Sequence record: PQ821641
Origin: Escherichia phage SD6
Direction: 5' to 3' (one strand)
DNA: 40,091 bases
Shown here: in pieces, positions 2,482 through 37,362 of the stretch
Position numbering within the stretch: position 1 is the first letter of the stretch
How the letters are laid out: the number at the start of each line of letters is the position of its first letter
Notes under the pieces: generated by a model
Databases searched by the model: none
What the model was told of the DNA's origin: nothing
Seen by the model: only the letters and a program-made list of their open reading frames with translations
Position numbers and translations under genes: made by a program

Positions 2482-2681
2482 CTATGGATATCGCACTATT
2501 GATAGCCATAGGCTATGGACTTATAGTCTACGTGCTGGTGAGAGACATCAACAAAGCGCGTAAAGTCTACAAATTCAACTATGTACGTCTGGGTCGCTGG
2601 ACTGTGCGCCAACCTAACGGACAATTCGTGCGCAACTTAGCGAACGTCTGGGATATAGCAACACTTGGGAGCAAACTATAA
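2478..2681 (+). CDS. Hypothetical small membrane protein (67 aa)
   Basis: ATGA overlap with the upstream ORF; predicted transmembrane segment IALLIAIGYGLIVYVLV. Confidence 0.45.
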   Translation: MTMDIALLIAIGYGLIVYVLVRDINKARKVYKFNYVRLGRWTVRQPNGQFVRNLANVWDIATLGSKL

Positions 2682-3007
2682 TGAACAAGTCATACGGGAT
2701 CAATCTGGTACACTCTATGGACGCAGACATGCAAATGCTAAGCCTACTGGCTACCGGGTATCGTCACGGAACGTCAAGTCACTCCGCACGTCAACAGCAG
2801 GAGAGGGACCGGGTACTGCAAGCAAGACTCCGGGCTGAGGGACATAAGTCCGAACTGATGTGTCTGGCGTATGGTGGACGACCAATCGCCGACGATGGTA
2901 AACTTCTGGTCTCAGGCTGGAAGGCGATAGACCAACGGTCAACCCTCAAGCACACGACTCACGGTGACTTCAGTCATCTTCACGCTAACCCACTGATATG
3001 CAAGTAA
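2681..3007 (+). CDS. Hypothetical early protein (108 aa)
   Basis: TAATG overlap with the upstream ORF; no recognisable family. Confidence 0.5.
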   Translation: MNKSYGINLVHSMDADMQMLSLLATGYRHGTSSHSARQQQERDRVLQARLRAEGHKSELMCLAYGGRPIADDGKLLVSGWKAIDQRSTLKHTTHGDFSHLHANPLICK

Positions 3008-3014
3008 TTCTGAC

Positions 3015-3034
3015 TTAACTATCACTATAGGACT
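3015..3034 (+). promoter_or_regulatory. Phage-RNAP promoter-like sequence directly upstream of the RNAP gene
   Basis: TTAACTATCACTATAGGACT shares the upstream half with the promoters at 26425 and 39668 and the ACTATAGG core with all others. Confidence 0.5.
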
Positions 3035-3100
3035 CAAGGTCTAAGACTCCAAGTGAAAGACCAAAGAGACTCTAAGTGAAAGACTAATAACAAGGACTTT
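3031..3100 (+). promoter_or_regulatory. Possible RNase III processing site (R1-like) in the RNAP leader
   Basis: Contains the GACTCAAGGT motif shared with the other putative RNase III hairpins, plus internal repeats CTAAGACTCCAAGTGAAAGAC / CTCTAAGTGAAAGAC. Confidence 0.3.
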
Positions 3101-3104
3101 AAGT

Positions 3105-5786
3105 ATGAGCGTCATCTCTATTGACAAACACGACTTCTCTGATGTGTCGAACGCTATTGAGCCGTTCAACCTGCTGGCTGACCATTACGGGCAAGACCTT
3201 GCAGTCAAACAGCTTCAACTTGAGCATGAGGCATATAGTGAAGGCGAGCGACGTTTCATCAAGAACCTTGAGCGCCAGACAGAGCGCGGGGAACTGGCAG
3301 ACAATCAGGTCGCCAAGCCTTTGATGCAGACTCTGGTCCCTAAGATTGCGCAAGCCGTCAAGGAGTGGCATGAAGGTCCAGACGGGAAGCTGTCAACCTC
3401 TCGTCCTAGCGTAGCGTTCACCATGTTGAGCACTGAAGAGAAGGCCGTCAAGGACCGCTCTCTGCGTATCTCTTGCGAGTCTGCTGCAGTTATTATACTG
3501 AAGGTCATCCTCTCCAAGCTGGTCAAGCCTGAAGGGATACCGATTACACCGATGGCCTCAGCGATAGGTCGCACACTTGAGGACGAAATCCGATTCGGTC
3601 GCATCCGTGACAAGGAGAAGGAGCACTTCAAGAAGGCGATAGCTGAGAACCTGAACAAGCGAGCTGGGGCATCCTACAAGAAAGCCTACATGCAAGCGGT
3701 TGAGGCCTCCATGCTGGAGCAGGGCCAACTGGAAGATGCGTGGGGTACTTGGAGTCCGACCGAGGCGGTACACGTTGGAATCAAGATGCTTGAGATTGTC
3801 ATCCAGTCCACACAACTGGTCGAGCTTAAGCGTTATGGTGCTGGCAATGCAGCGGCTGATGTTGAGATGGTCCACCTGTCAGACTTCTGGGTCAAGAAGA
3901 TGGCACAACGAGGATTCAGCCTTGCGGGTATCGCTCCAGTCTACCAACCTTGCGTCGTTCCACCTAAGCCGTGGACTGGTGTCGTAGGCGGGGGGTATTG
4001 GGCCAAAGGACGCAGACCTCTACCACTGATTCGCTTAGGGTCTAAGTCTGCGGTGGCACGTTACGAAGACGTGTACATGCCTGAAGTCTATGACGCTGTG
4101 AATATCATCCAGAATACACCTTGGAAGGTGAACAAGAAGGTTCTGGACGTGGTGAACATGGTTGAGAAGTTGAACAACACGCCTATTGATGACATCCCTC
4201 AGATGGAGCCATTGAAGCCTGAAGACTATGCGGGTGAGACTGAAGAGGAGCTCAAGGCATGGAAGAAATCTGCTGCTGGTATCTACCGCCGAGAGAAGGC
4301 CCGGCAGTCACGCAGATTGTCACTGAGCTTTATCGTTAACCAAGCGAACAAGTTCTCTCAGTTCAAGGCCATCTGGTTCCCATACAACATGGACTGGCGC
4401 GGTCGAGTCTACGCTGTACCGATGTTCAACCCTCAGGGTAACGACATGCAGAAGGGTCTCCTTACTCTGGCAGTCGGTAAGCCTATTGGTGCTGATGGTT
4501 TCAAATGGCTGAAGGTCCACGGTGCAAACTGCGCGGGTGTCGATAAAGTCACCTTCGAGGAGCGAATCAAGTGGGTGGAAGACAACCACGACAATATCAT
4601 GTCTGCTGCTAAGGCACCGATGGATAGTATTGAGTGGTGGGGCAAGCTAGACTCTCCGTTCTGCTTCCTTGCGTTCTGCTTCGAGTATGCTGGCGTAATG
4701 CACCACGGCTTGTCTTACTCCTGCTCGCTGCCGATAGCGTTCGATGGGTCCTGCTCTGGGATTCAGCACTTCAGCGCGATGCTTCGTGACCACATTGGTG
4801 GACATGCAGTGAACCTGACGCCATCCGGTAAGGTCCAAGACATCTACCGCATCGTGTCTGATCGCATTGAGGAGGAGCTTAAAGTCCTGCTGGTTAACGG
4901 TACTGACAACGAGGTGGTTACCCACGAGGACAAGAAAACTGGTGAGATTACCGAGCGTATCAAGCTAGGGACACGAGAGCTGGCCCGTCAGTGGCTGACC
5001 TACGGTATGTCACGCAAGGTGACTAAGCGTTCGGTCATGACTCTGGCCTACGGGTCGAAAGAGTATGGCTTCGCAGACCAAGTTTACGAGGACATCGTGA
5101 TGCCAGCGATTGACTCAGGGTCTGGAGCTATGTTCACTGAACCAAGCCAAGCATCTCGCTTCATGGCTAAGATGATCTGGGAAGCTGTGAGTGTGACCGT
5201 AGTTGCTGCGGTTGACGCGATGAAGTGGCTTCAAGGTGCTGCCAAGCTGCTGGCTGCTGAAGTGAAGGACAAGAAGACTGGAGAAATCCTGAAGCCTTGC
5301 CTTCCGGTACACTGGGTCACACCTGATGGTTTCCCGGTCTGGCAGGAATACCGCAAGAAGGATACCACTCGTCTGAATCTGATGTTCTTAGGTTCATTCA
5401 ACCTTCAACCTACGGTCAACAAAGGCGCGAAGAAAGAGCTGGATAAGCACAAGCAGGAGTCAGGCATTAGCCCGAACTTCGTCCACTCACAAGATGGTAG
5501 CCACCTACGCAAGACTGTAGTCCACACTCATCGCAAGTATGGCGTGATGTCATTCGCAGTGATTCATGATAGCTTTGGGACCATCCCTGCTGACGCTGAG
5601 TATCTATTCCGTGGTGTCCGTGAGACGATGGTCGAGACCTACCGCGACAACGATGTGCTGCTTGACTTCTATGAGCAGTTCGAATACCAGCTTCATGAGA
5701 GTCAGCGCGACAAGTTACCTGAGCTTCCGAAGAAAGGTAAACTGAATATCGAAGACATCTTGTCTTCAGACTTTGCATTCGCTTAA
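3105..5786 (+). CDS. T7-type single-subunit DNA-directed RNA polymerase (gene 1)
   Basis: 893 aa, collinear with T7 RNAP from the N terminus (FSD...FN.LADHYG) to the C-terminal SDFAFA, including the PCVVPPKPWTG and IHDSFGT motifs. Confidence 0.98.
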   Translation: MSVISIDKHDFSDVSNAIEPFNLLADHYGQDLAVKQLQLEHEAYSEGERRFIKNLERQTERGELADNQVAKPLMQTLVPKIAQAVKEWHEGPDGKLSTSRPSVAFTMLSTEEKAVKDRSLRISCESAAVIILKVILSKLVKPEGIPITPMASAIGRTLEDEIRFGRIRDKEKEHFKKAIAENLNKRAGASYKKAYMQAVEASMLEQGQLEDAWGTWSPTEAVHVGIKMLEIVIQSTQLVELKRYGAGNAAADVEMVHLSDFWVKKMAQRGFSLAGIAPVYQPCVVPPKPWTGVVGGGYWAKGRRPLPLIRLGSKSAVARYEDVYMPEVYDAVNIIQNTPWKVNKKVLDVVNMVEKLNNTPIDDIPQMEPLKPEDYAGETEEELKAWKKSAAGIYRREKARQSRRLSLSFIVNQANKFSQFKAIWFPYNMDWRGRVYAVPMFNPQGNDMQKGLLTLAVGKPIGADGFKWLKVHGANCAGVDKVTFEERIKWVEDNHDNIMSAAKAPMDSIEWWGKLDSPFCFLAFCFEYAGVMHHGLSYSCSLPIAFDGSCSGIQHFSAMLRDHIGGHAVNLTPSGKVQDIYRIVSDRIEEELKVLLVNGTDNEVVTHEDKKTGEITERIKLGTRELARQWLTYGMSRKVTKRSVMTLAYGSKEYGFADQVYEDIVMPAIDSGSGAMFTEPSQASRFMAKMIWEAVSVTVVAAVDAMKWLQGAAKLLAAEVKDKKTGEILKPCLPVHWVTPDGFPVWQEYRKKDTTRLNLMFLGSFNLQPTVNKGAKKELDKHKQESGISPNFVHSQDGSHLRKTVVHTHRKYGVMSFAVIHDSFGTIPADAEYLFRGVRETMVETYRDNDVLLDFYEQFEYQLHESQRDKLPELPKKGKLNIEDILSSDFAFA

Positions 5787-6077: not shown

Positions 6078-6100
6078 CCTAAACTATCACTATAGGATTA
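6078..6100 (+). promoter_or_regulatory. Phage promoter (phi1.1-like)
   Basis: CCTAAACTATCACTATAGGATTA matches the window-wide promoter consensus. Confidence 0.7.
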
Positions 6101-6145
6101 GACTCAAGGTCATGACTCAAAGTCGTGGCCTTCATGATTAACCCT
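6101..6145 (+). promoter_or_regulatory. Putative RNase III site (R1.1-like hairpin)
   Basis: GACTCAAGGTCAT...GTGGCCTTCATGATTA; AAGGUCA can pair with UGGCCUU; same architecture as the elements at 13588 and 37264; T7 has R1.1 at this position. Confidence 0.5.
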
Positions 6146-6171
6146 ATAACCTAAACAACTGGAGCTACAAC

Positions 6172-6660: not shown

Positions 6661-7701
6661 ATGACAACTATCAAAACTAACCCGCACCGCGCTGTAGATT
6701 ACTCTGAGTCTGGCATTAAGAAGGCACTGGAAGCAGCCGGGTCTCTGGAAGCTGAAGTGAAGTATGATGGTGTCAGGTTGAATATTCCGGTGCTGCGAGA
6801 GGGTGAGACCTATTGGTTAAGCCGTGAGTCTAAACCGCTTCCAGCACTGGAGTGGATGAACTCTGAGTTAGGCAATGCGTGGACTCAAGCTGACTGGCGA
6901 TGGTTCCTGCGTCAAGCTGGGTACGAAGGCGTGGGCCTGATGATTGACGGAGAGGTCATGGTAAAAGGTGTTGACTTTAACACGTCTTCCGGTCTCATCC
7001 GAACGAAGTGGCTGAAGCCTAGCAACGAGGAGTTCGCTGAATGTTATCCGGGCCGTGGCAAGAAGGTCCCATTCTGGGTCGCACGGTCACTACTTCAGGT
7101 TGTGGTATATGGCGTTGTTGATATGACAACCATAGCAGACCCGAAAGCCGAAGGTCCTATCCATAGCGTAACCCGACTGAAGGCCGAAGCCATCGTCCCT
7201 CTCCTCCAGAAATACTTCCCGGAAATCGACTGGGTTCTGTCTGAGTCACACACGGTCTACGACCTTGAGTCGCTCAACTCCCTGTACGAAGAGAAGCGTC
7301 TTGAAGGACATGAGGGTCTGGTAGTCAAGGACCCGCTTGGTAAATACAAGCGTGGCAAGAAGTCAGGCATGTGGAAGATGAAGCCTGAGGAGACCATCGA
7401 CGGGACCGTGTGTGGACTCGTGTGGGGGACTCCGGGAAAGGCTAACGAAGGTAAGGTGATTGGCTTCGAGGTGCTGCTTGAGGATGGCATGATGGTTAAC
7501 GCCTGCGGTCTGACTGAAGAACAGAAGGATGAGTTTACGGAAGCCTGTAACACTGATACATATATTCTCGGTGGAATCAATCCATACGAAGGATGGCAGT
7601 GTGAAGTCCTCTTCATGGAGCGGTTCCCAGATGGTTCCCTTCGTCATCCTAGCTTCAAGTGCTGGCGTGGAACGGAAGACAATCCAACCGTTAAGAGTTA
7701 A
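6661..7701 (+). CDS. ATP-dependent DNA ligase (gene 1.3)
   Basis: 346 aa; T7-ligase-like IKTNP...KYDGVR (adenylation lysine), GEVMVKGVDFNTSSGL, EGHEGLVVKDP and GSLRHPSF motifs. Confidence 0.97.
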   Translation: MTTIKTNPHRAVDYSESGIKKALEAAGSLEAEVKYDGVRLNIPVLREGETYWLSRESKPLPALEWMNSELGNAWTQADWRWFLRQAGYEGVGLMIDGEVMVKGVDFNTSSGLIRTKWLKPSNEEFAECYPGRGKKVPFWVARSLLQVVVYGVVDMTTIADPKAEGPIHSVTRLKAEAIVPLLQKYFPEIDWVLSESHTVYDLESLNSLYEEKRLEGHEGLVVKDPLGKYKRGKKSGMWKMKPEETIDGTVCGLVWGTPGKANEGKVIGFEVLLEDGMMVNACGLTEEQKDEFTEACNTDTYILGGINPYEGWQCEVLFMERFPDGSLRHPSFKCWRGTEDNPTVKS

Positions 7702-7712
7702 CTAAACGTCAA

Positions 7713-7753
7713 CCCAGTGGTCTTCTGACTGCTGGGATTCTTTGCTTTGTGTT
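7713..7753 (+). terminator. Putative early intrinsic terminator (TE-like) after the ligase gene
   Basis: Hairpin CCCAGUGG-loop-CUGCUGGG with G-U pairs, followed by the U-rich AUUCUUUGCUUUGUGUU; T7 TE lies at the equivalent position. Confidence 0.45.
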
Positions 7754-8639: not shown

Positions 8640-8730
8640 ACCGAGTGAGTGGTGCGAGCGTAAATTTGAGGAGACAGGTAACGTCGATTACCTTCAGCTC
8701 TACAACTTATGGAAGGAGCGAGGTTTATGA
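8632..8730 (+). CDS. Hypothetical small protein (32 aa)
   Basis: ATG overlaps the upstream stop and its TGA overlaps the gp2 ATG (ATGA); weak call. Confidence 0.25.
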
Positions 8731-8885
8731 CTGAGGTTGAGAAGAAATACATCGTGGAGCTTGAGGGTAGCGTTCAGTCCTTCGAGGTCCCGGTGTACGC
8801 AAAGTCTCTTGAAGAGGCTACCCTGAAGTCCCAAGAGTATGAGGACGCTGGGTTTGTGGTCGGACGGATTCGTCCTGAGACCTAA
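8727..8885 (+). CDS. gp2-like inhibitor of host RNA polymerase
   Basis: 52 aa; [14 protein letters not shown]...GFVVGRIRP matches T7 gp2 SFEVPIYAETLDEA...GFEVTRVRP; below the ORF-track size cut-off. Confidence 0.8.
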
Positions 8886-8943: not shown

Positions 8944-9642
8944 ATGGCTAAAGAGCAACTGAAGACTTTCACCACTCCGGTAGCTGGTATCGTTGAGCCT
9001 TACGCATGGCTGAACAAAGCAGACACCAAGTTCAACGAGCGTGGTGAACACAAAGTCAACCTGACGTTCGACCTGAGCAACCCGAAGGTCCGTAAGATGA
9101 TTGATGTCTTACAGAAGATTCACGACGATGCGTATGCGAAAGCACTCGCAGACCACGAGAAGAACCCACCTCAGGTTCAGCGTGGCAAGAAGCCTATTGA
9201 ACCACGAGAAGGCGACATGCCGTGGATTGAGAATGGTGACGGTACTGTTACCCTGAAGTTTAAATGCTTCGCGTCTTACCTGAAGGATGGTAAGTCAGAG
9301 CCTATCGTATTACGGTTCTACGACACCGATGCTAAGTTAATCCGTGACGTCCCGAATATTGGCGCTGGCTCCAAACTGAAGGTCAAGTTTAAAGTCCTGC
9401 CGTTCAAGTGGAACGCTGCGACTGGTGCAAGCGTTAAGCTCCAGCTTGAGTCCTGCCTTCTGGTAGAACTGAAGGAGTGGAAAGGTGATGGTGCTGGTGG
9501 CGATGGTGGCTGGGGTGATGATGAAGACCTAGGCACTGGCTACAAAGCGTCAACCGATGGCGACTTCGGGTCTGATGACTTTGGTGACGATGGTTCAGAA
9601 GGTGGTGACGACTCCAACTCTGGTGGCGATTACGACTTCTAA
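8944..9642 (+). CDS. Single-stranded DNA-binding protein (gene 2.5)
   Basis: 232 aa; homologous to T7 gp2.5 along its length (GKKP...EGDMPW, VKLQLES) with an acidic C-terminal tail ending in F. Confidence 0.95.
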   Translation: MAKEQLKTFTTPVAGIVEPYAWLNKADTKFNERGEHKVNLTFDLSNPKVRKMIDVLQKIHDDAYAKALADHEKNPPQVQRGKKPIEPREGDMPWIENGDGTVTLKFKCFASYLKDGKSEPIVLRFYDTDAKLIRDVPNIGAGSKLKVKFKVLPFKWNAATGASVKLQLESCLLVELKEWKGDGAGGDGGWGDDEDLGTGYKASTDGDFGSDDFGDDGSEGGDDSNSGGDYDF

Positions 9643-10094
9643 TGGCCCAATGGTCTGCAAAACGGGGGCACTCTGTGGGTGCCTACCGCTCTGGACTTGA
9701 AGCCAAGAACCAGCAGTGGCTGGAACAGAACGGCGTCAAAGCGGAGTACGAAAGCCATTATATCAACTATGTGATTCCGGCTTCCGACCACAAGTACACA
9801 CCAGACTTTATCCTTCCTAACGGTATCATCGTGGAGACCAAAGGTATCTTCGATAGTGATGACCGTAAGAAGCACCTTCTGGTACGAGAACAGCACCCAG
9901 AGTTAGACATTCGGTTCGTGTTCTCCAGTTCCCGCTCCAAGTTATACAAAGGGTCTCCGACCACGTATGGAGCATGGTGCGAAAAGAACGGCTATAAGTA
10001 TGCCGATAAGTTCATCCCGGTTGAGTGGCTTCGAGAGGCGACTGTACGTCTGCCTTCAGGTATACTCATCCCCAAGAAGAAAGGAGTTAAGTGA
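9642..10094 (+). CDS. Endonuclease I, Holliday-junction resolvase (gene 3)
   Basis: 150 aa; YTPDF.LPNGI.VETKG...DDRKKHLL.REQHPELDIR.VFSSSR.KLYKGSPT.YG as in T7 gp3. Confidence 0.95.
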   Translation: MAQWSAKRGHSVGAYRSGLEAKNQQWLEQNGVKAEYESHYINYVIPASDHKYTPDFILPNGIIVETKGIFDSDDRKKHLLVREQHPELDIRFVFSSSRSKLYKGSPTTYGAWCEKNGYKYADKFIPVEWLREATVRLPSGILIPKKKGVK

Positions 10095-10549
10095 TGACTA
10101 CCTGTAAAGACCTTGAAGTTGGAACACGTTACAGATTCTCAAAGAACACCCTGCTGAATAACCCCCAATTCACTGATGCTGTTTTCGAAAAGCGAGAAGA
10201 CCATAGCGTAATTGTGGAGAAGGGGTGGCATCCTGAGGATTACATCGGTGAGACTACCGGCTGGAATGGTCACGAGACCTACAGTGTAGAAGTTGTTGAA
10301 CATCCTCAAGTCCTGCCAGCCTCAAGCGTCCCTCCCGTCACCGTTAAACGTGAAGTCCTGACCATCAACAAGATTGGTGTAGGTCAGACGTTCATCGTCC
10401 ACGGTAAGCCTGACGAAGTGTACGTGAAGATTAGCAACTCTCACGTCTTCAACCATAAGTTGCTCCAGATGCACACGACTGACGCACATCGCTTCCAGTC
10501 ACATCTGAATCTGGTGGTAGTAGAGCTCGTTGTTTATAATGGAAAGTGA
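10091..10549 (+). CDS. Hypothetical protein (152 aa) inserted between endonuclease I and lysozyme
   Basis: Overlaps the endonuclease stop; no T7 counterpart at this locus; no recognisable family. Confidence 0.6.
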   Translation: MMTTCKDLEVGTRYRFSKNTLLNNPQFTDAVFEKREDHSVIVEKGWHPEDYIGETTGWNGHETYSVEVVEHPQVLPASSVPPVTVKREVLTINKIGVGQTFIVHGKPDEVYVKISNSHVFNHKLLQMHTTDAHRFQSHLNLVVVELVVYNGK

Positions 10550-10910
10550 CTGCATCGAGTGGGCTAAGAGTCGCAATAAGGATGGCTATGGTAGACGTAA
10601 ATTCCGTGGTCAATCTATGGGTGCTCATAGAGCAGCTTGGATAGAGACCAATGGTGCTATACCGGGAGGTCTTGTCGTAAGACACAAGTGTGATAACCGT
10701 GCATGCGTAAACATTGAGCACCTTGAGTTGGGGACTCAGGCAGAAAACATGATGGACTGCTCAGTACGCAGGACATTTAATTCAAAACTAACTGAAGATG
10801 ACGTTAAGGATATTCGCACCTCAAGCGAGACCCTTAAGTTTATGGCTGAAAAATACTCAGTAAGTGAGACAACCATAAGTCGAATCAGGAACCACAAGAG
10901 GTGGAAATAA
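10539..10910 (+). CDS. HNH homing endonuclease
   Basis: 123 aa from ATG 10539; HNH-type motif RHKCDNRACVNIEHLELGTQAENM; paralogous to the HNH at 29818. Confidence 0.85.
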   Translation: MESDCIEWAKSRNKDGYGRRKFRGQSMGAHRAAWIETNGAIPGGLVVRHKCDNRACVNIEHLELGTQAENMMDCSVRRTFNSKLTEDDVKDIRTSSETLKFMAEKYSVSETTISRIRNHKRWK

Positions 10911-10912
10911 TA

Positions 10913-11371
10913 ATGGGAAGTAAAGTACAATTCATGCCACGCAAGTCAACTGACGCTATCTTCGTTCACTGTTCGGCTACCAAGCCAGATATGGACATCG
11001 GGGTAGAGACCATCCGTATGTGGCACAAGCAGCAAGGCTGGCTGGACGTAGGCTACCACTTTATCATCAAGCGTGATGGCACTGTGGAAGAGGGACGCCC
11101 GGTCAATGTCGTAGGGTCACACGTTAAGGACTGGAACTCCAAGTCCGTAGGCGTCTGCCTTGTAGGTGGAATCAACGCTAAGGGTCAGTTTGAAGCTAAC
11201 TTCACTACAGCCCAGATGAACTCCCTGCGCAAAAAGCTGGCTGACCTGAAGGCATTGTATCCACAGGCAGAAATCAAAGCACACCATGACGTAGCGCCTA
11301 AAGCCTGTCCAAGTTTTGACTTGCAACACTGGCTATCTACCAATGAACTGGTCACTTCCGACCGTGGATAA
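10913..11371 (+). CDS. N-acetylmuramoyl-L-alanine amidase / T7-type lysozyme (gene 3.5)
   Basis: Near-collinear with T7 gp3.5: STDAIFVHCSATKP, WLDVGYHFIIKRDGTVEEGR, HHDVAPKACPSFDL, NELVTSDRG. Confidence 0.95.
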   Translation: MGSKVQFMPRKSTDAIFVHCSATKPDMDIGVETIRMWHKQQGWLDVGYHFIIKRDGTVEEGRPVNVVGSHVKDWNSKSVGVCLVGGINAKGQFEANFTTAQMNSLRKKLADLKALYPQAEIKAHHDVAPKACPSFDLQHWLSTNELVTSDRG

Positions 11372-13420: not shown

Positions 13421-13585
13421 GTGCTAAAGAAACTTAAAGCTCGCTACCATCGGTTCATGTACAAATGGTGGAGCGATGAAGCAACCTGCCTGTCGAACAT
13501 TCTGGGAGACCAAAGGTTCGACTCTAAGGCATGGAAGAAAGCTAACCGGAAGTTTATGTATCACTTCTTGCGTACAGACTTCTAG
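13421..13585 (+). CDS. Hypothetical small protein (54 aa, GTG start)
   Basis: GGAGG about 6 nt upstream of a GTG; fills the gap between gene 4 and gene 5; weak call. Confidence 0.3.
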   Translation: MLKKLKARYHRFMYKWWSDEATCLSNILGDQRFDSKAWKKANRKFMYHFLRTDF

Positions 13586-13587
13586 GT

Positions 13588-13632
13588 CTAGACTCAAGGT
13601 CATTCACATCGAGTGGCCTTTATGATTAGACT
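13588..13632 (+). promoter_or_regulatory. Putative RNase III site (R4.7-like hairpin) upstream of the DNA polymerase gene
   Basis: TAGACTCAAGGTCAT-TCACATCGAG-TGGCCTTTATGATTAGACT, imperfect inverted repeat with the shared GACTCAAGGT motif. Confidence 0.5.
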
Positions 13633-13648
13633 AAACGGAGGATTAACC

Positions 13649-19323: not shown

Positions 19324-20892
19324 ATGGCTGAACGTGAAGGATTTGCTGCTGAAGGCGCGAAGGCAGTTTATGATAGACTGAAGAACGGTAGACAGCCATA
19401 TGAGACAAGAGCTCAGAACTGCGCTGCCGTGACCATCCCCTCGCTATTTCCTAAGGAGTCCGACAACTCGTCTACGGAATACGTGACGCCGTGGCAATCT
19501 GTGGGTGCTCGCTGCTTGAACAACTTGGCTGCAAAGCTGATGTTGGCATTATTCCCTCAGTCACCGTGGATGCGACTGACAGTCTCCGAATATGAGGCAA
19601 AGACCTTGAGTCAGGACTCAGAGGCTGCTGCTCGTGTTGACGAAGGGCTCGCTATGGTCGAGCGTGTATTGATGGCCTACATGGAGACTAACAGTTTCCG
19701 TGTGCCATTGTTCGAAGCTCTGAAGCAGCTTATCGTCTCCGGTAACTGTCTGCTCTACATTCCAGAGCCTGAACAGGGAACCTACAGTCCTATGCGAATG
19801 TACCGCTTAGTGTCGTACGTTGTTCAACGTGATGCTTTCGGTAATATCTTGCAGATTGTGACTCTCGACAAGGTAGCGTTTAGTGCTCTGCCGGAAGACG
19901 TTAAGTCACAACTCAACTCAGAAGACTATGAGCCTGACACCGAGCTGGAAGTGTATACGCACATCTACCGTCAGGACGACGAGTATCTGCGCTATGAGGA
20001 AGTGGAAGGCATTGAGGTAGCAGGGACCGAGGGTTCCTACCCACTGACTGCATGTCCATACATCCCGGTACGAATGGTTCGACTGGATGGTGAAGACTAT
20101 GGTCGTTCTTACTGCGAGGAGTATCTGGGAGACCTGAACTCTCTGGAGACGATTACAGAAGCTATCACCAAAATGGCTAAGGTAGCCTCCAAGGTGGTGG
20201 GCCTCGTTAACCCGAACGGTATCACGCAACCACGTCGTCTGAACAAGGCGGCTACAGGTGAGTTCGTGGCTGGTCGCGTAGAGGACATCAACTTCCTGCA
20301 ACTGACGAAAGGTCAGGACTTTACGATTGCAAAGTCGGTGGCTGACGCTATCGAGCAACGTTTAGGCTGGGCCTTCCTTCTTAATAGTGCTGTTCAGCGT
20401 AATGCCGAGCGAGTAACTGCTGAAGAGATTCGTTATGTTGCTGGCGAACTGGAGGCGACCTTAGGTGGCGTGTACTCAGTGCAGTCACAAGAGCTTCAGT
20501 TGCCTGTCGTCCGTGTGCTGATTAACCAGCTTCAGTCTGCTGGCACGATTCCTGACCTTCCGAAAGAAGCGGTAGAGCCTACGGTATCCACCGGTCTGGA
20601 AGCATTAGGTCGTGGTCAGGACTTGGAGAAGCTAACTCAGGCAGTCAACATGATGACCGGTCTACAGCCTCTGCAACAGGACCCAGACATTAACTTGCCG
20701 ACCCTGAAGCTGCGACTGCTGAATGCCTTAGGCATTGACACTGCTGGTCTTCTACTGACTCAGGACGAGAAGATGCAACGTATTGCTGAACAATCCGCTC
20801 AAGGAGCTGTGGTCAACGGTGCGTCTGCTGCTGGTGCTAACATGGGTGCTGCTGTAGGTCAGGGAGCTGGTGAGGACATGGCTCAAGCCTAA
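19324..20892 (+). CDS. Portal (head-to-tail connector) protein (gene 8)
   Basis: 522 aa, collinear with T7 gp8 (YETRAQNCA, TPWQSVGAR, YRLVSYVVQRDAFGN, ERVTAEEIRYVAGELE). Confidence 0.97.
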   Translation: MAEREGFAAEGAKAVYDRLKNGRQPYETRAQNCAAVTIPSLFPKESDNSSTEYVTPWQSVGARCLNNLAAKLMLALFPQSPWMRLTVSEYEAKTLSQDSEAAARVDEGLAMVERVLMAYMETNSFRVPLFEALKQLIVSGNCLLYIPEPEQGTYSPMRMYRLVSYVVQRDAFGNILQIVTLDKVAFSALPEDVKSQLNSEDYEPDTELEVYTHIYRQDDEYLRYEEVEGIEVAGTEGSYPLTACPYIPVRMVRLDGEDYGRSYCEEYLGDLNSLETITEAITKMAKVASKVVGLVNPNGITQPRRLNKAATGEFVAGRVEDINFLQLTKGQDFTIAKSVADAIEQRLGWAFLLNSAVQRNAERVTAEEIRYVAGELEATLGGVYSVQSQELQLPVVRVLINQLQSAGTIPDLPKEAVEPTVSTGLEALGRGQDLEKLTQAVNMMTGLQPLQQDPDINLPTLKLRLLNALGIDTAGLLLTQDEKMQRIAEQSAQGAVVNGASAAGANMGAAVGQGAGEDMAQA

Positions 20893-20909
20893 ACTATCAC
20901 TATAGGAAC
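20889..20909 (+). promoter_or_regulatory. Phage promoter (phi9-like)
   Basis: CCTAAACTATCACTATAGGAACT overlapping the portal stop. Confidence 0.7.
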
Positions 20910-20989
20910 TTAGACAAGATTCACAAAAGCATTAGGCCGGGTGAGACTCCCGGTCGGTTCCTATCATCAACTTAAAGGAGAACGACTCA

Positions 20990-21876: not shown

Positions 21877-21898
21877 CTAAACTATCACTATAGGGAGA
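21877..21898 (+). promoter_or_regulatory. Phage promoter (phi10-like), best consensus match
   Basis: CTAAACTATCACTATAGGGAGA, with a GGTTTCCC-containing leader resembling the T7 gene 10 leader. Confidence 0.8.
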
Positions 21899-22001
21899 CC
21901 AAGAGACAGACTCAAGGTTTCCCCTATTACTTCAGTCCATACGGATTGGGCGTACAGTAAGTAATACACTTTATCTTTCAATTGAATAGGAGAATTATCA
22001 T

Positions 22002-26424: not shown

Positions 26425-26447
26425 CCTTAACTATCACTATAGGGACT
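26425..26447 (+). promoter_or_regulatory. Phage promoter (phi13-like)
   Basis: CCTTAACTATCACTATAGGGACT. Confidence 0.7.
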
Positions 26448-26476
26448 ATAGGCCCTTAAGGTTATAAGGAGCCTTT

Positions 26477-37261: not shown

Positions 37262-37263
37262 GT

Positions 37264-37312
37264 GTTAGACTCAAGGTCATTACTATGTGTAGTGGCCTTT
37301 ATGGTTAACACT
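37264..37312 (+). promoter_or_regulatory. Putative RNase III site (R18.5-like hairpin)
   Basis: GTGTTAGACTCAAGGTCAT-TACTATGTGT-AGTGGCCTTTATGGTTAACAC; outer GUGUUA/UAACAC and inner AAGGUCA/UGGCCUU can pair. Confidence 0.5.
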
Positions 37313-37362
37313 AACTAGTGGAGGAGACTCTACGTGAGATCTGATAAACCGGGAGGGCAACT

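Follow-up and report, generated by a model that had tools for sequence, protein, structure and literature searches.

The window analysed here is the whole 40,091-nt sequence of Escherichia phage SD6 (PQ821641), a Kayfunavirus of the K1F-like branch of the T7 group. Between 2400 and 3600 it shares about 95% identity with LM33_P1, HC13 and many others, and 214 phage records match. The window is circularly permuted: the physical left end of K1F (TCTCACAGTTCAAG... / TCTCACAGTTCAAGAACC...) corresponds to position 175, positions 1-174 represent the right end of the genome, and the terminal repeat is contained in a single copy. A perfect 16-nt tandem repeat (ACCTACAGTCTCACTA, 2.8 copies) in the left-end region at 414-458 recalls the left-end repeat arrays of T7, and further CCTACAGT motifs extend up to position 490. 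The locus under study is the 97-nt gap (3008-3104) between a short early ORF and gene 1, which encodes the single-subunit RNA polymerase (RNAP) of the phage. The window RNAP is 93-99% identical to the RNAPs of most sampled Kayfunavirus-type loci, the value for the loci L017 and L037 being 88%. The locus is composed of the following features:

2681-3007, + strand: upstream early ORF of 108 amino acids (phrog_7066, unknown function) at the position of K1F gp0.38
3013-3035, + strand: predicted phage-RNAP promoter from -17 to +6 (GACTTAACTATCACTATAGGACT), a consensus match with the predicted +1 at G3030 (T7 convention)
3022-3079, + strand: irregular 18-bp hairpin (-17.2 kcal/mol, z -2.1), proposed as the equivalent of T7 R1
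3030-3104, + strand: predicted leader of a phage-made gene 1 mRNA (75 nt; 43% A, 39% GC)
3031-3040, + strand: GACTCAAGGT element, which recurs in the 5' half of three other hairpins (6101, 13591 and 37268)
3092-3096, + strand: Shine-Dalgarno sequence AAGGA, 8 nt ahead of the ATG of gene 1
3105-5786, + strand: gene 1, single-subunit RNA polymerase of 893 amino acids (Pfam RNA_pol, E = 1.6e-106, also RPOL_N)
6080-6155, + strand: following phage promoter, +1 at 6095, overlapped by an RNase III-like hairpin (z -5.4), at the position of T7 phi1.1/R1.1

The stop codon of the early ORF lies 5 nt ahead of promoter position -17, and the promoter is located between genes on the same strand as gene 1 downstream. 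It comprises TTAACTATCACTATAGG at 3015-3031, and TTAACTATCACTATAGGACT fills positions 3015-3034 of the + strand, where the original prediction had placed a match to the phage-promoter consensus. This match is confirmed by two approaches. A search for the 17-mer promoter motif with up to three mismatches retrieved 11 copies in the window, all on the + strand, compared with 0.12 expected from 100 shuffles, and the gene-1 site agrees exactly with the consensus from -17 to +2. A log-odds matrix covering -20 to +6, which was trained on the other ten promoters without the gene-1 site, assigned the latter a score of 27.9 bits; the leave-one-out scores of the other ten range from 25.3 to 39.2. Beyond the ten training sites and the gene-1 site, the scan of both strands with this matrix yielded nothing above 12 bits. 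The other ten promoters are found at the places of T7 promoters, namely after gene 1, after the ligase gene, before genes 2.5, 4, 6.5, 9, 10, 13 and 17, and at the right end. The upstream half shared with two of them was also recovered: the TTAAC variant is common to the gene-1 site, 26427 and 39669, and the remaining eight promoters read TAAAC. At promoter 26427, CCTATAG comes before and a second CTATAGG (GACTATAGG, 26444-26452) directly after, the arrangement covering 26427-26452. The concern that non-consensus bases from +2 to +6 could render the gene-1 element inactive did not hold up, since its GGAC start is also present at promoters 7786 and 8883, and a GGA start in five of the ten others. 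The site does precede the polymerase gene as predicted, the distance from the predicted +1 to the start codon at 3105 being 75 nt instead of the proposed 70 nt or so.

The comparison of gene 1 upstream regions among close relatives, which had been suggested as a check, was based on 80 IMG/VR loci encoding RNAP relatives. The site is present in 22 of 22 K1F-type relatives (K1F, LM33_P1 and 20 IMG/VR contigs). K1F (NC_007456) exhibits the identical site at 2476-2492, with gene 1 at 2566. The distance to the start codon of gene 1 amounts to 75-81 nt in the relatives and to 102 nt in CR8. A promoter copy precedes gene 1 in every IMG/VR locus whose RNAP has at least 78% identity and whose sequence extends to the gene 1 start, and the motif together with the first leader bases occurs exactly once per Kayfunavirus contig (20 IMG/VR contigs). 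Among 16 K1F-type sequences, the nucleotide diversity of promoter positions -17 to +3 is 0.000, compared with 0.09-0.11 for the adjacent third codon positions and 0.12 for the 5-nt spacer before the promoter. The diversity of the 75-nt leader (0.016-0.028 in K1F-type relatives) is likewise below that of third codon positions, and the block AAGGACTTTAAGTATG around the Shine-Dalgarno sequence is free of variation in 23 sequences. By this comparative measure, the gene-1 promoter is under purifying selection.

The distribution of the site was also assessed independently of any consensus, by asking for a 17-mer from the 250 nt before gene 1 that recurs with up to two mismatches in the 3.7 kb after gene 1. 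This test gave a positive result in all 21 testable K1F/CR8-type loci and detected no recurring 17-mer at the promoter position in about 55 T7-, T3- and K11-type loci, which harbor an R1-type (RNase III-type) hairpin at the promoter's place. A search for a gene-1 promoter in ICP3, DU_PP_II and PPWS4 found none. Aeromonas phage JELG-KS1 (L089, about 2054-2076) carries an unannotated own-consensus promoter (ATTAAACCCACACAAAAGG) about 90-105 nt before its RNAP gene, which has one off-consensus base compared with the six downstream copies (CACAGAAGG). As far as the sampled genomes indicate, the gene-1 promoter is patchy across Studiervirinae and characteristic of the genus Kayfunavirus.

The strongest evidence for a functional gene-1 site that the sequences provide is its co-variation with the specificity loop of the polymerase, which exists in three variants:

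Window RNAP: RLNLMFLGSFNLQ
RNAPs of L017 and L037: RLDLMFLGTFRLQ, with a T3-like Asp
RNAP of CR8: RIKLMFMG-VQYR

The gene-1 site of the K1F type reads ...AACTATCACTATAGG and matches the consensus of its own genome. L017 and L037, which are closest to Cronobacter phage GW1 and whose RNAP is 88% identical, carry TTAAACCCTCACTATAGG both before gene 1 and in their other promoters. CR8 (genus Caroctavirus, RNAP 78% identical) has AAGGAAGGTACACTATAGG at all its promoter sites, including the gene-1 site. The three specificity-loop variants correspond to three promoter classes, which differ in the -12 to -8 region, and in each class the gene-1 site changes accordingly. An Asp in the specificity loop is tied to T3 promoter specificity, and the T3-like Asp of L017 and L037 fits their T3-like ACCCT promoter bases. 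The gene-1 site tracks the RNAP specificity through two switches, which argues that it is used by that polymerase. The original claim of a cognate promoter directly before gene 1, unlike the situation in T7, is accordingly supported by conservation, purifying selection and co-variation, and by the absence of the site from T7-, T3- and K11-type genomes.

The biochemistry of a close relative points in the same direction. The minimal in vitro promoter of the purified Ro45lw RNAP is ACTTAACTATCACTATAGGGA, with +1 at G (PMC12272871). Ro45lw represents our locus L011; the RNAPs of Ro45lw and the window are 95% identical and have the key specificity-loop residues in common. The gene-1 site of the window is identical to this minimal promoter from -17 to +2, with A and C at +3/+4 in the window versus G and A in Ro45lw. 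The Ro45lw subgroup (L011 2399-2485; also L012, L013, L019 and L021) shows a peculiarity of its own: the gene-1 copy alone reads CACTAAAGG owing to a T to A exchange at -2, the other promoters keep TATA, and the gene-1 leader is 6 nt longer. The gene-1 promoter of this subgroup, a copy that is not annotated in the GenBank record of Ro45lw, may be weaker or differently tuned. Our literature search retrieved neither transcript mapping nor an in vitro test for the window copy or any other Kayfunavirus gene-1 copy, and no start-site or transcriptome data for Kayfunavirus. The gene-1 site is very probably a working promoter for the phage's own single-subunit RNAP, of the early/middle (class II-like) type.

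The GACTCAAGGT element that was expected downstream of the promoter is indeed present there, at 3031-3040. Allowing for one mismatch, the window contains 29 matches on both strands compared with 3.2 expected. On the + strand, the element occurs in exact form at 6101, 13591 and 37268, where it supplies the 5' half of three irregular and strong hairpins (6095-6150, 13585-13640 and 37262-37315; z -3 to -5) with UAGACUCAAGGUCAU...GUGGCCUUUAUGAUUA in common. These hairpins are located at the positions of T7 R1.1, R4.7 and R18.5 and probably represent RNase III processing sites. The exact element also occurs three times on the - strand (7262, 19603 and 21573), inside coding regions.

In the hairpin at 3022-3079, UCACU (3022-3026) pairs with AGUGA (3075-3079), UAGG with C.CUA, CUC with GAG, and GGUCU (3038-3042) with AGACC (3058-3062). 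The complete structure is only formed by read-through RNA, because the promoter bases 3022-3029 are required, and the idea of processing therefore applies to host read-through and not to phage-initiated RNA. A processing hairpin in the latter was rejected, since RNA starting at G3030 is unstructured (fold z +0.57). The proposed processing of the transcript is thus retained only in part: RNase III-like hairpins at other places of the genome have GACTCAAGGT as their 5' half, but RNA from the promoter itself lacks the fold. Promoter bases (-4 to about +10) also pair downstream at 6080-6150, 20890-20965 and 21878-21925, and at 6080, 20890 and 21878 the hairpin is therefore likewise complete only in read-through RNA. 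The window hairpin at promoter 21893 resembles the 5' stem-loop of T7 phi10. Every Kayfunavirus-type relative shows the stems of the gene-1 hairpin in its minimum-energy fold, and they are also present in the RNAalifold consensus, in which 14 of 14 pairs are kept and 0 of 14 are compensatory, with nearly all paired columns invariant; the structure is conserved but not proven. One compensatory-like case is suggestive, namely the A at -2 in the Ro45lw subgroup together with a downstream UUU, as a result of which CACTAAAGG forms a perfect 11-bp stem with the downstream CUUUAGUGAUA. An intrinsic terminator before gene 1, as in phiPSA2, was considered and rejected, given that there is no U-run, that AAGACUAAUAAC follows the hairpin and that a scan of 2900-3104 was empty. 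A comparison with Rfam gave no match at gathering scores in the whole window and only one chance-level match in 2900-3200.

The hairpin leads to the alternative that 3015-3090 acts chiefly at the RNA level, as an R1-equivalent hairpin by which early transcripts of the host polymerase are processed by RNase III or stabilised; the promoter-like bases would then be conserved mainly as its 5' arm, with little initiation. The fold of the read-through RNA of this segment (z -2.1) is comparable to that of the T7-type R1 site folded likewise (z -2.3), and the recurrence of its stems in all relatives and the perfect stem of the Ro45lw subgroup favor such a role. The same applies to the 5' half GACUCAAGGUC, which is common to three strong RNase III-like hairpins of the window, and to the entire leader, which is more conserved than third codon positions. 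However, an exact promoter consensus of 17-20 nt is not needed by a hairpin arm. Moreover, the bases -17 to -9 have switched to the respective promoter consensus in L017, L037 and CR8, a change that hairpin pairing cannot explain because these bases are unpaired in the model, and compensatory pairs amount to 0 of 14. Promoter and hairpin functions are also compatible with each other: they overlap at 6080, and in T7 phi3.8/R3.8 and phi6.5/R6.5 are adjacent (PMC6938266). We therefore consider a chiefly RNA-level role unlikely, but the conservation of the promoter bases could partly be owed to the overlapping RNA hairpin.

The coexistence of both elements allows for a further, tentative interpretation, which we regard as possible though doubtful. 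The promoter and an R1-like RNase III hairpin might be deliberately superimposed, resulting in two functionally different gene 1 mRNAs, one per polymerase, and Studiervirinae might have evolved this layout more than once: CR8, phiPSA2 and JELG-KS1 likewise have a promoter inside a hairpin. If so, host-made RNA would include the entire hairpin and be cut or stabilised at 3022-3079, and phage-made RNA would begin within it, at G3030, and possess an open, A-rich leader. The overlap would then be a built-in switch of the fate of gene 1 mRNA during the handover from the host to the phage polymerase.

A vestigial origin of the gene-1 site, as a neutral promoter copy at a recombination junction or a leftover of module exchange, with weak or no binding and no regulatory effect, is very improbable. 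Promoters are conserved blocks where mosaic recombination could happen, T7, T3 and K11 types manage without a gene-1 promoter, and one subgroup has an off-consensus TAAA version, all of which would be in line with such a remnant. Yet 20 positions show zero diversity across 16 genomes in which about 10% of the third codon positions nearby differ, the site was kept through at least two switches of polymerase specificity, its distance to the start codon is fixed, and similar sites exist in the more distant phiPSA2 and Aeromonas JELG-KS1. The least credible explanation is a promoter that chiefly serves DNA functions, either replication priming (like the T7 phi1.1A/B origin) or RNAP-driven genome entry: primary origins of the T7 type consist of a phage promoter followed by an AT-rich stretch, and the leader is somewhat A-rich (39% GC versus 50% in the genome), but with 61% A+T it provides no strongly AT-rich stretch downstream, a composition on which the replication-origin reading was rejected, the lowest 60-nt windows (28-30% GC) are found elsewhere in the genome, the position equivalent to the T7 origin is after gene 1, at the 6080 promoter, and a promoter at 3030 cannot speed entry because RNAP exists only once gene 1 (to 5786) is inside the cell.

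The working-promoter reading has consequences for the regulation of gene 1, which involve three further features of the window:

7713-7745, + strand: candidate early terminator TE, a terminator-like hairpin with a T-run after the 346-aa ORF 6661-7701
8709-8885, + strand: homologue of gp2, the inhibitor of host RNA polymerase (phrog_1307, E = 7.9e-24)
10913-11371, + strand: Amidase_2 protein, homologue of the T7 lysozyme gp3.5 (PF01510, E = 4.1e-16)

The ORF 6661-7701, a putative ligase gene, aligns with the annotated ligase gene 1.3 of K1F, and the terminator scan of the + strand ahead of 7713-7745 revealed no stronger terminator-like site. By analogy with T7, the Amidase_2 protein would negatively regulate the phage RNAP. 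Between the endonuclease I gene (9642-10094) and the amidase/lysozyme gene, an HNH endonuclease ORF (PF13392) is located at 10539-10910, which probably encodes a homing endonuclease; ORF 10094-10549 has no match in Pfam.

The early ORFs are co-oriented with gene 1, and the terminator scan found no terminator-like site in 3030-5786 and none between the early region and gene 1, so that host read-through could supply the first polymerase. By eye, TTGACT (609) and TTGACA (750) look similar to the T7 promoters A1 and A2; their assignment as host promoters is drawn from this resemblance, as the sigma-70 scan flagged neither. The best sigma-70-like early match is TTGATA-17-TATAGT (10/12) at 2499-2527, about 580 nt before gene 1; it is situated within a TTG-initiated ORF (2361-2681), listed upstream of the first ATG of that frame (2469), and could represent a minor internal host promoter.

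In the proposed sequence of events, host RNA polymerase from the left-end early promoters would cross the 97-nt gap and produce the first gene 1 mRNA. The newly made phage RNAP would then bind at 3013-3035 (-17 to +6) and start at G3030, giving rise to another gene 1 mRNA, whose A-rich leader of 75 nt would be unstructured and whose ribosome-binding site would be unchanged. A cognate promoter ahead of gene 1 would thereby establish positive autoregulation, and this feedback would keep gene 1 and the downstream genes transcribed once the gp2 homologue stops the host enzyme. Later in infection the lysozyme homologue may damp the loop, as suggested by T7. We infer all four of these elements, i.e., initiation at G3030 in vivo, the feedback loop, the damping by lysozyme and the cleavage by RNase III.

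In the textbook picture of T7, the polymerase originates from host transcripts only, and a self-promoter in Kayfunavirus would imply positive feedback on the regulator that is central to the infection programme. Kayfunavirus is a large genus of coliphages in therapeutic use, and the self-promoter bears on kinetic models of T7-like infection, on the engineering of K1F-type phages and on orthogonal RNAP/promoter parts for synthetic biology.

T7 is the reference for a comparison with known systems. Its gene 1 is transcribed by host RNAP only, with the RNase III site R1 upstream. T7 and the window agree in gene order and in having a hairpin in the intergenic region, 25-90 nt ahead of gene 1, and in both the 5' half of this hairpin resembles the other RNase III-type sites of the respective genome. 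The difference is that T7 lacks a phage promoter before gene 1, whereas the promoter of the window represents the 5' arm of the hairpin. A promoter adjacent to an RNase III site is known from T7 phi3.8/R3.8 and phi6.5/R6.5 (PMC6938266). In these pairs and at window position 6080, like at the gene-1 site, the promoter is upstream of or overlaps the hairpin and the start lies upstream of the cut site, which is putative in the window. They are located in the region of the middle genes, whereas the gene-1 hairpin precedes the polymerase gene and is weaker (-17 versus -22 to -25 kcal/mol).

Promoters ahead of RNAP genes have been predicted in several other phages. Citrobacter phage CR44b (Kayfunavirus, HG818823; gene 1 at 1906) carries the annotation "predicted promoter" at 1814-1836, and CR8 (Caroctavirus, HG818824) has one before gene 1 at 3356-3378. 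CR44b, CR8 and K1F agree with the window in the strand, in the position within the gap between a gp0.38-like ORF and gene 1, and in the 23-bp element; CR44b and K1F share every base from -17 to +12 with the window, the K1F site being unannotated. The annotations of CR44b and CR8 are predictions, and the window, a further isolate with about 95% nucleotide identity to its nearest database relatives, differs from them in nothing material. For the Kayfunavirus Sparklingdew, CTWAACTATCACTATAGG repeats were described in 2026, one of which ends the gene that comes before the RNAP gene (PMC13298934). Pseudomonas phage phiPSA2 has a "putative phage promoter 1" (KJ507099, 4158-4180) of its own consensus before the RNAP gene, which overlaps a predicted intrinsic terminator. 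The predicted promoter phi-A8 of Vibrio phage phiA318 precedes kinase and RNAP genes, and autoregulation has been proposed (PMC4099482). phiPSA2, phiA318 and JELG-KS1 belong to other genera with consensus sequences different from that of the window, and all three cases are predictions.

The closest counterpart with mapped transcripts is Pseudomonas phage LUZ100, whose phi1 upstream of the RNAP gene was mapped by ONT-cappable-seq (PMC10134795). In the positive-feedback model proposed for this phage, host read-through makes the first RNAP, which is followed by self-amplification (PMC10134795). LUZ100 is a distant T7-like phage with temperate features, and its phi1 was proposed to be gated by a MarR-like repressor in the lysis/lysogeny decision; the window phage, in contrast, is of the virulent type, with no integrase or repressor seen. 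The gene-1 promoter is hence already known at the level of annotation, and the idea of feedback has already been proposed for other phages. The modest novelty of the present study is the co-variation of the gene-1 promoter with the specificity of the polymerase and its overlap with an R1-type hairpin.
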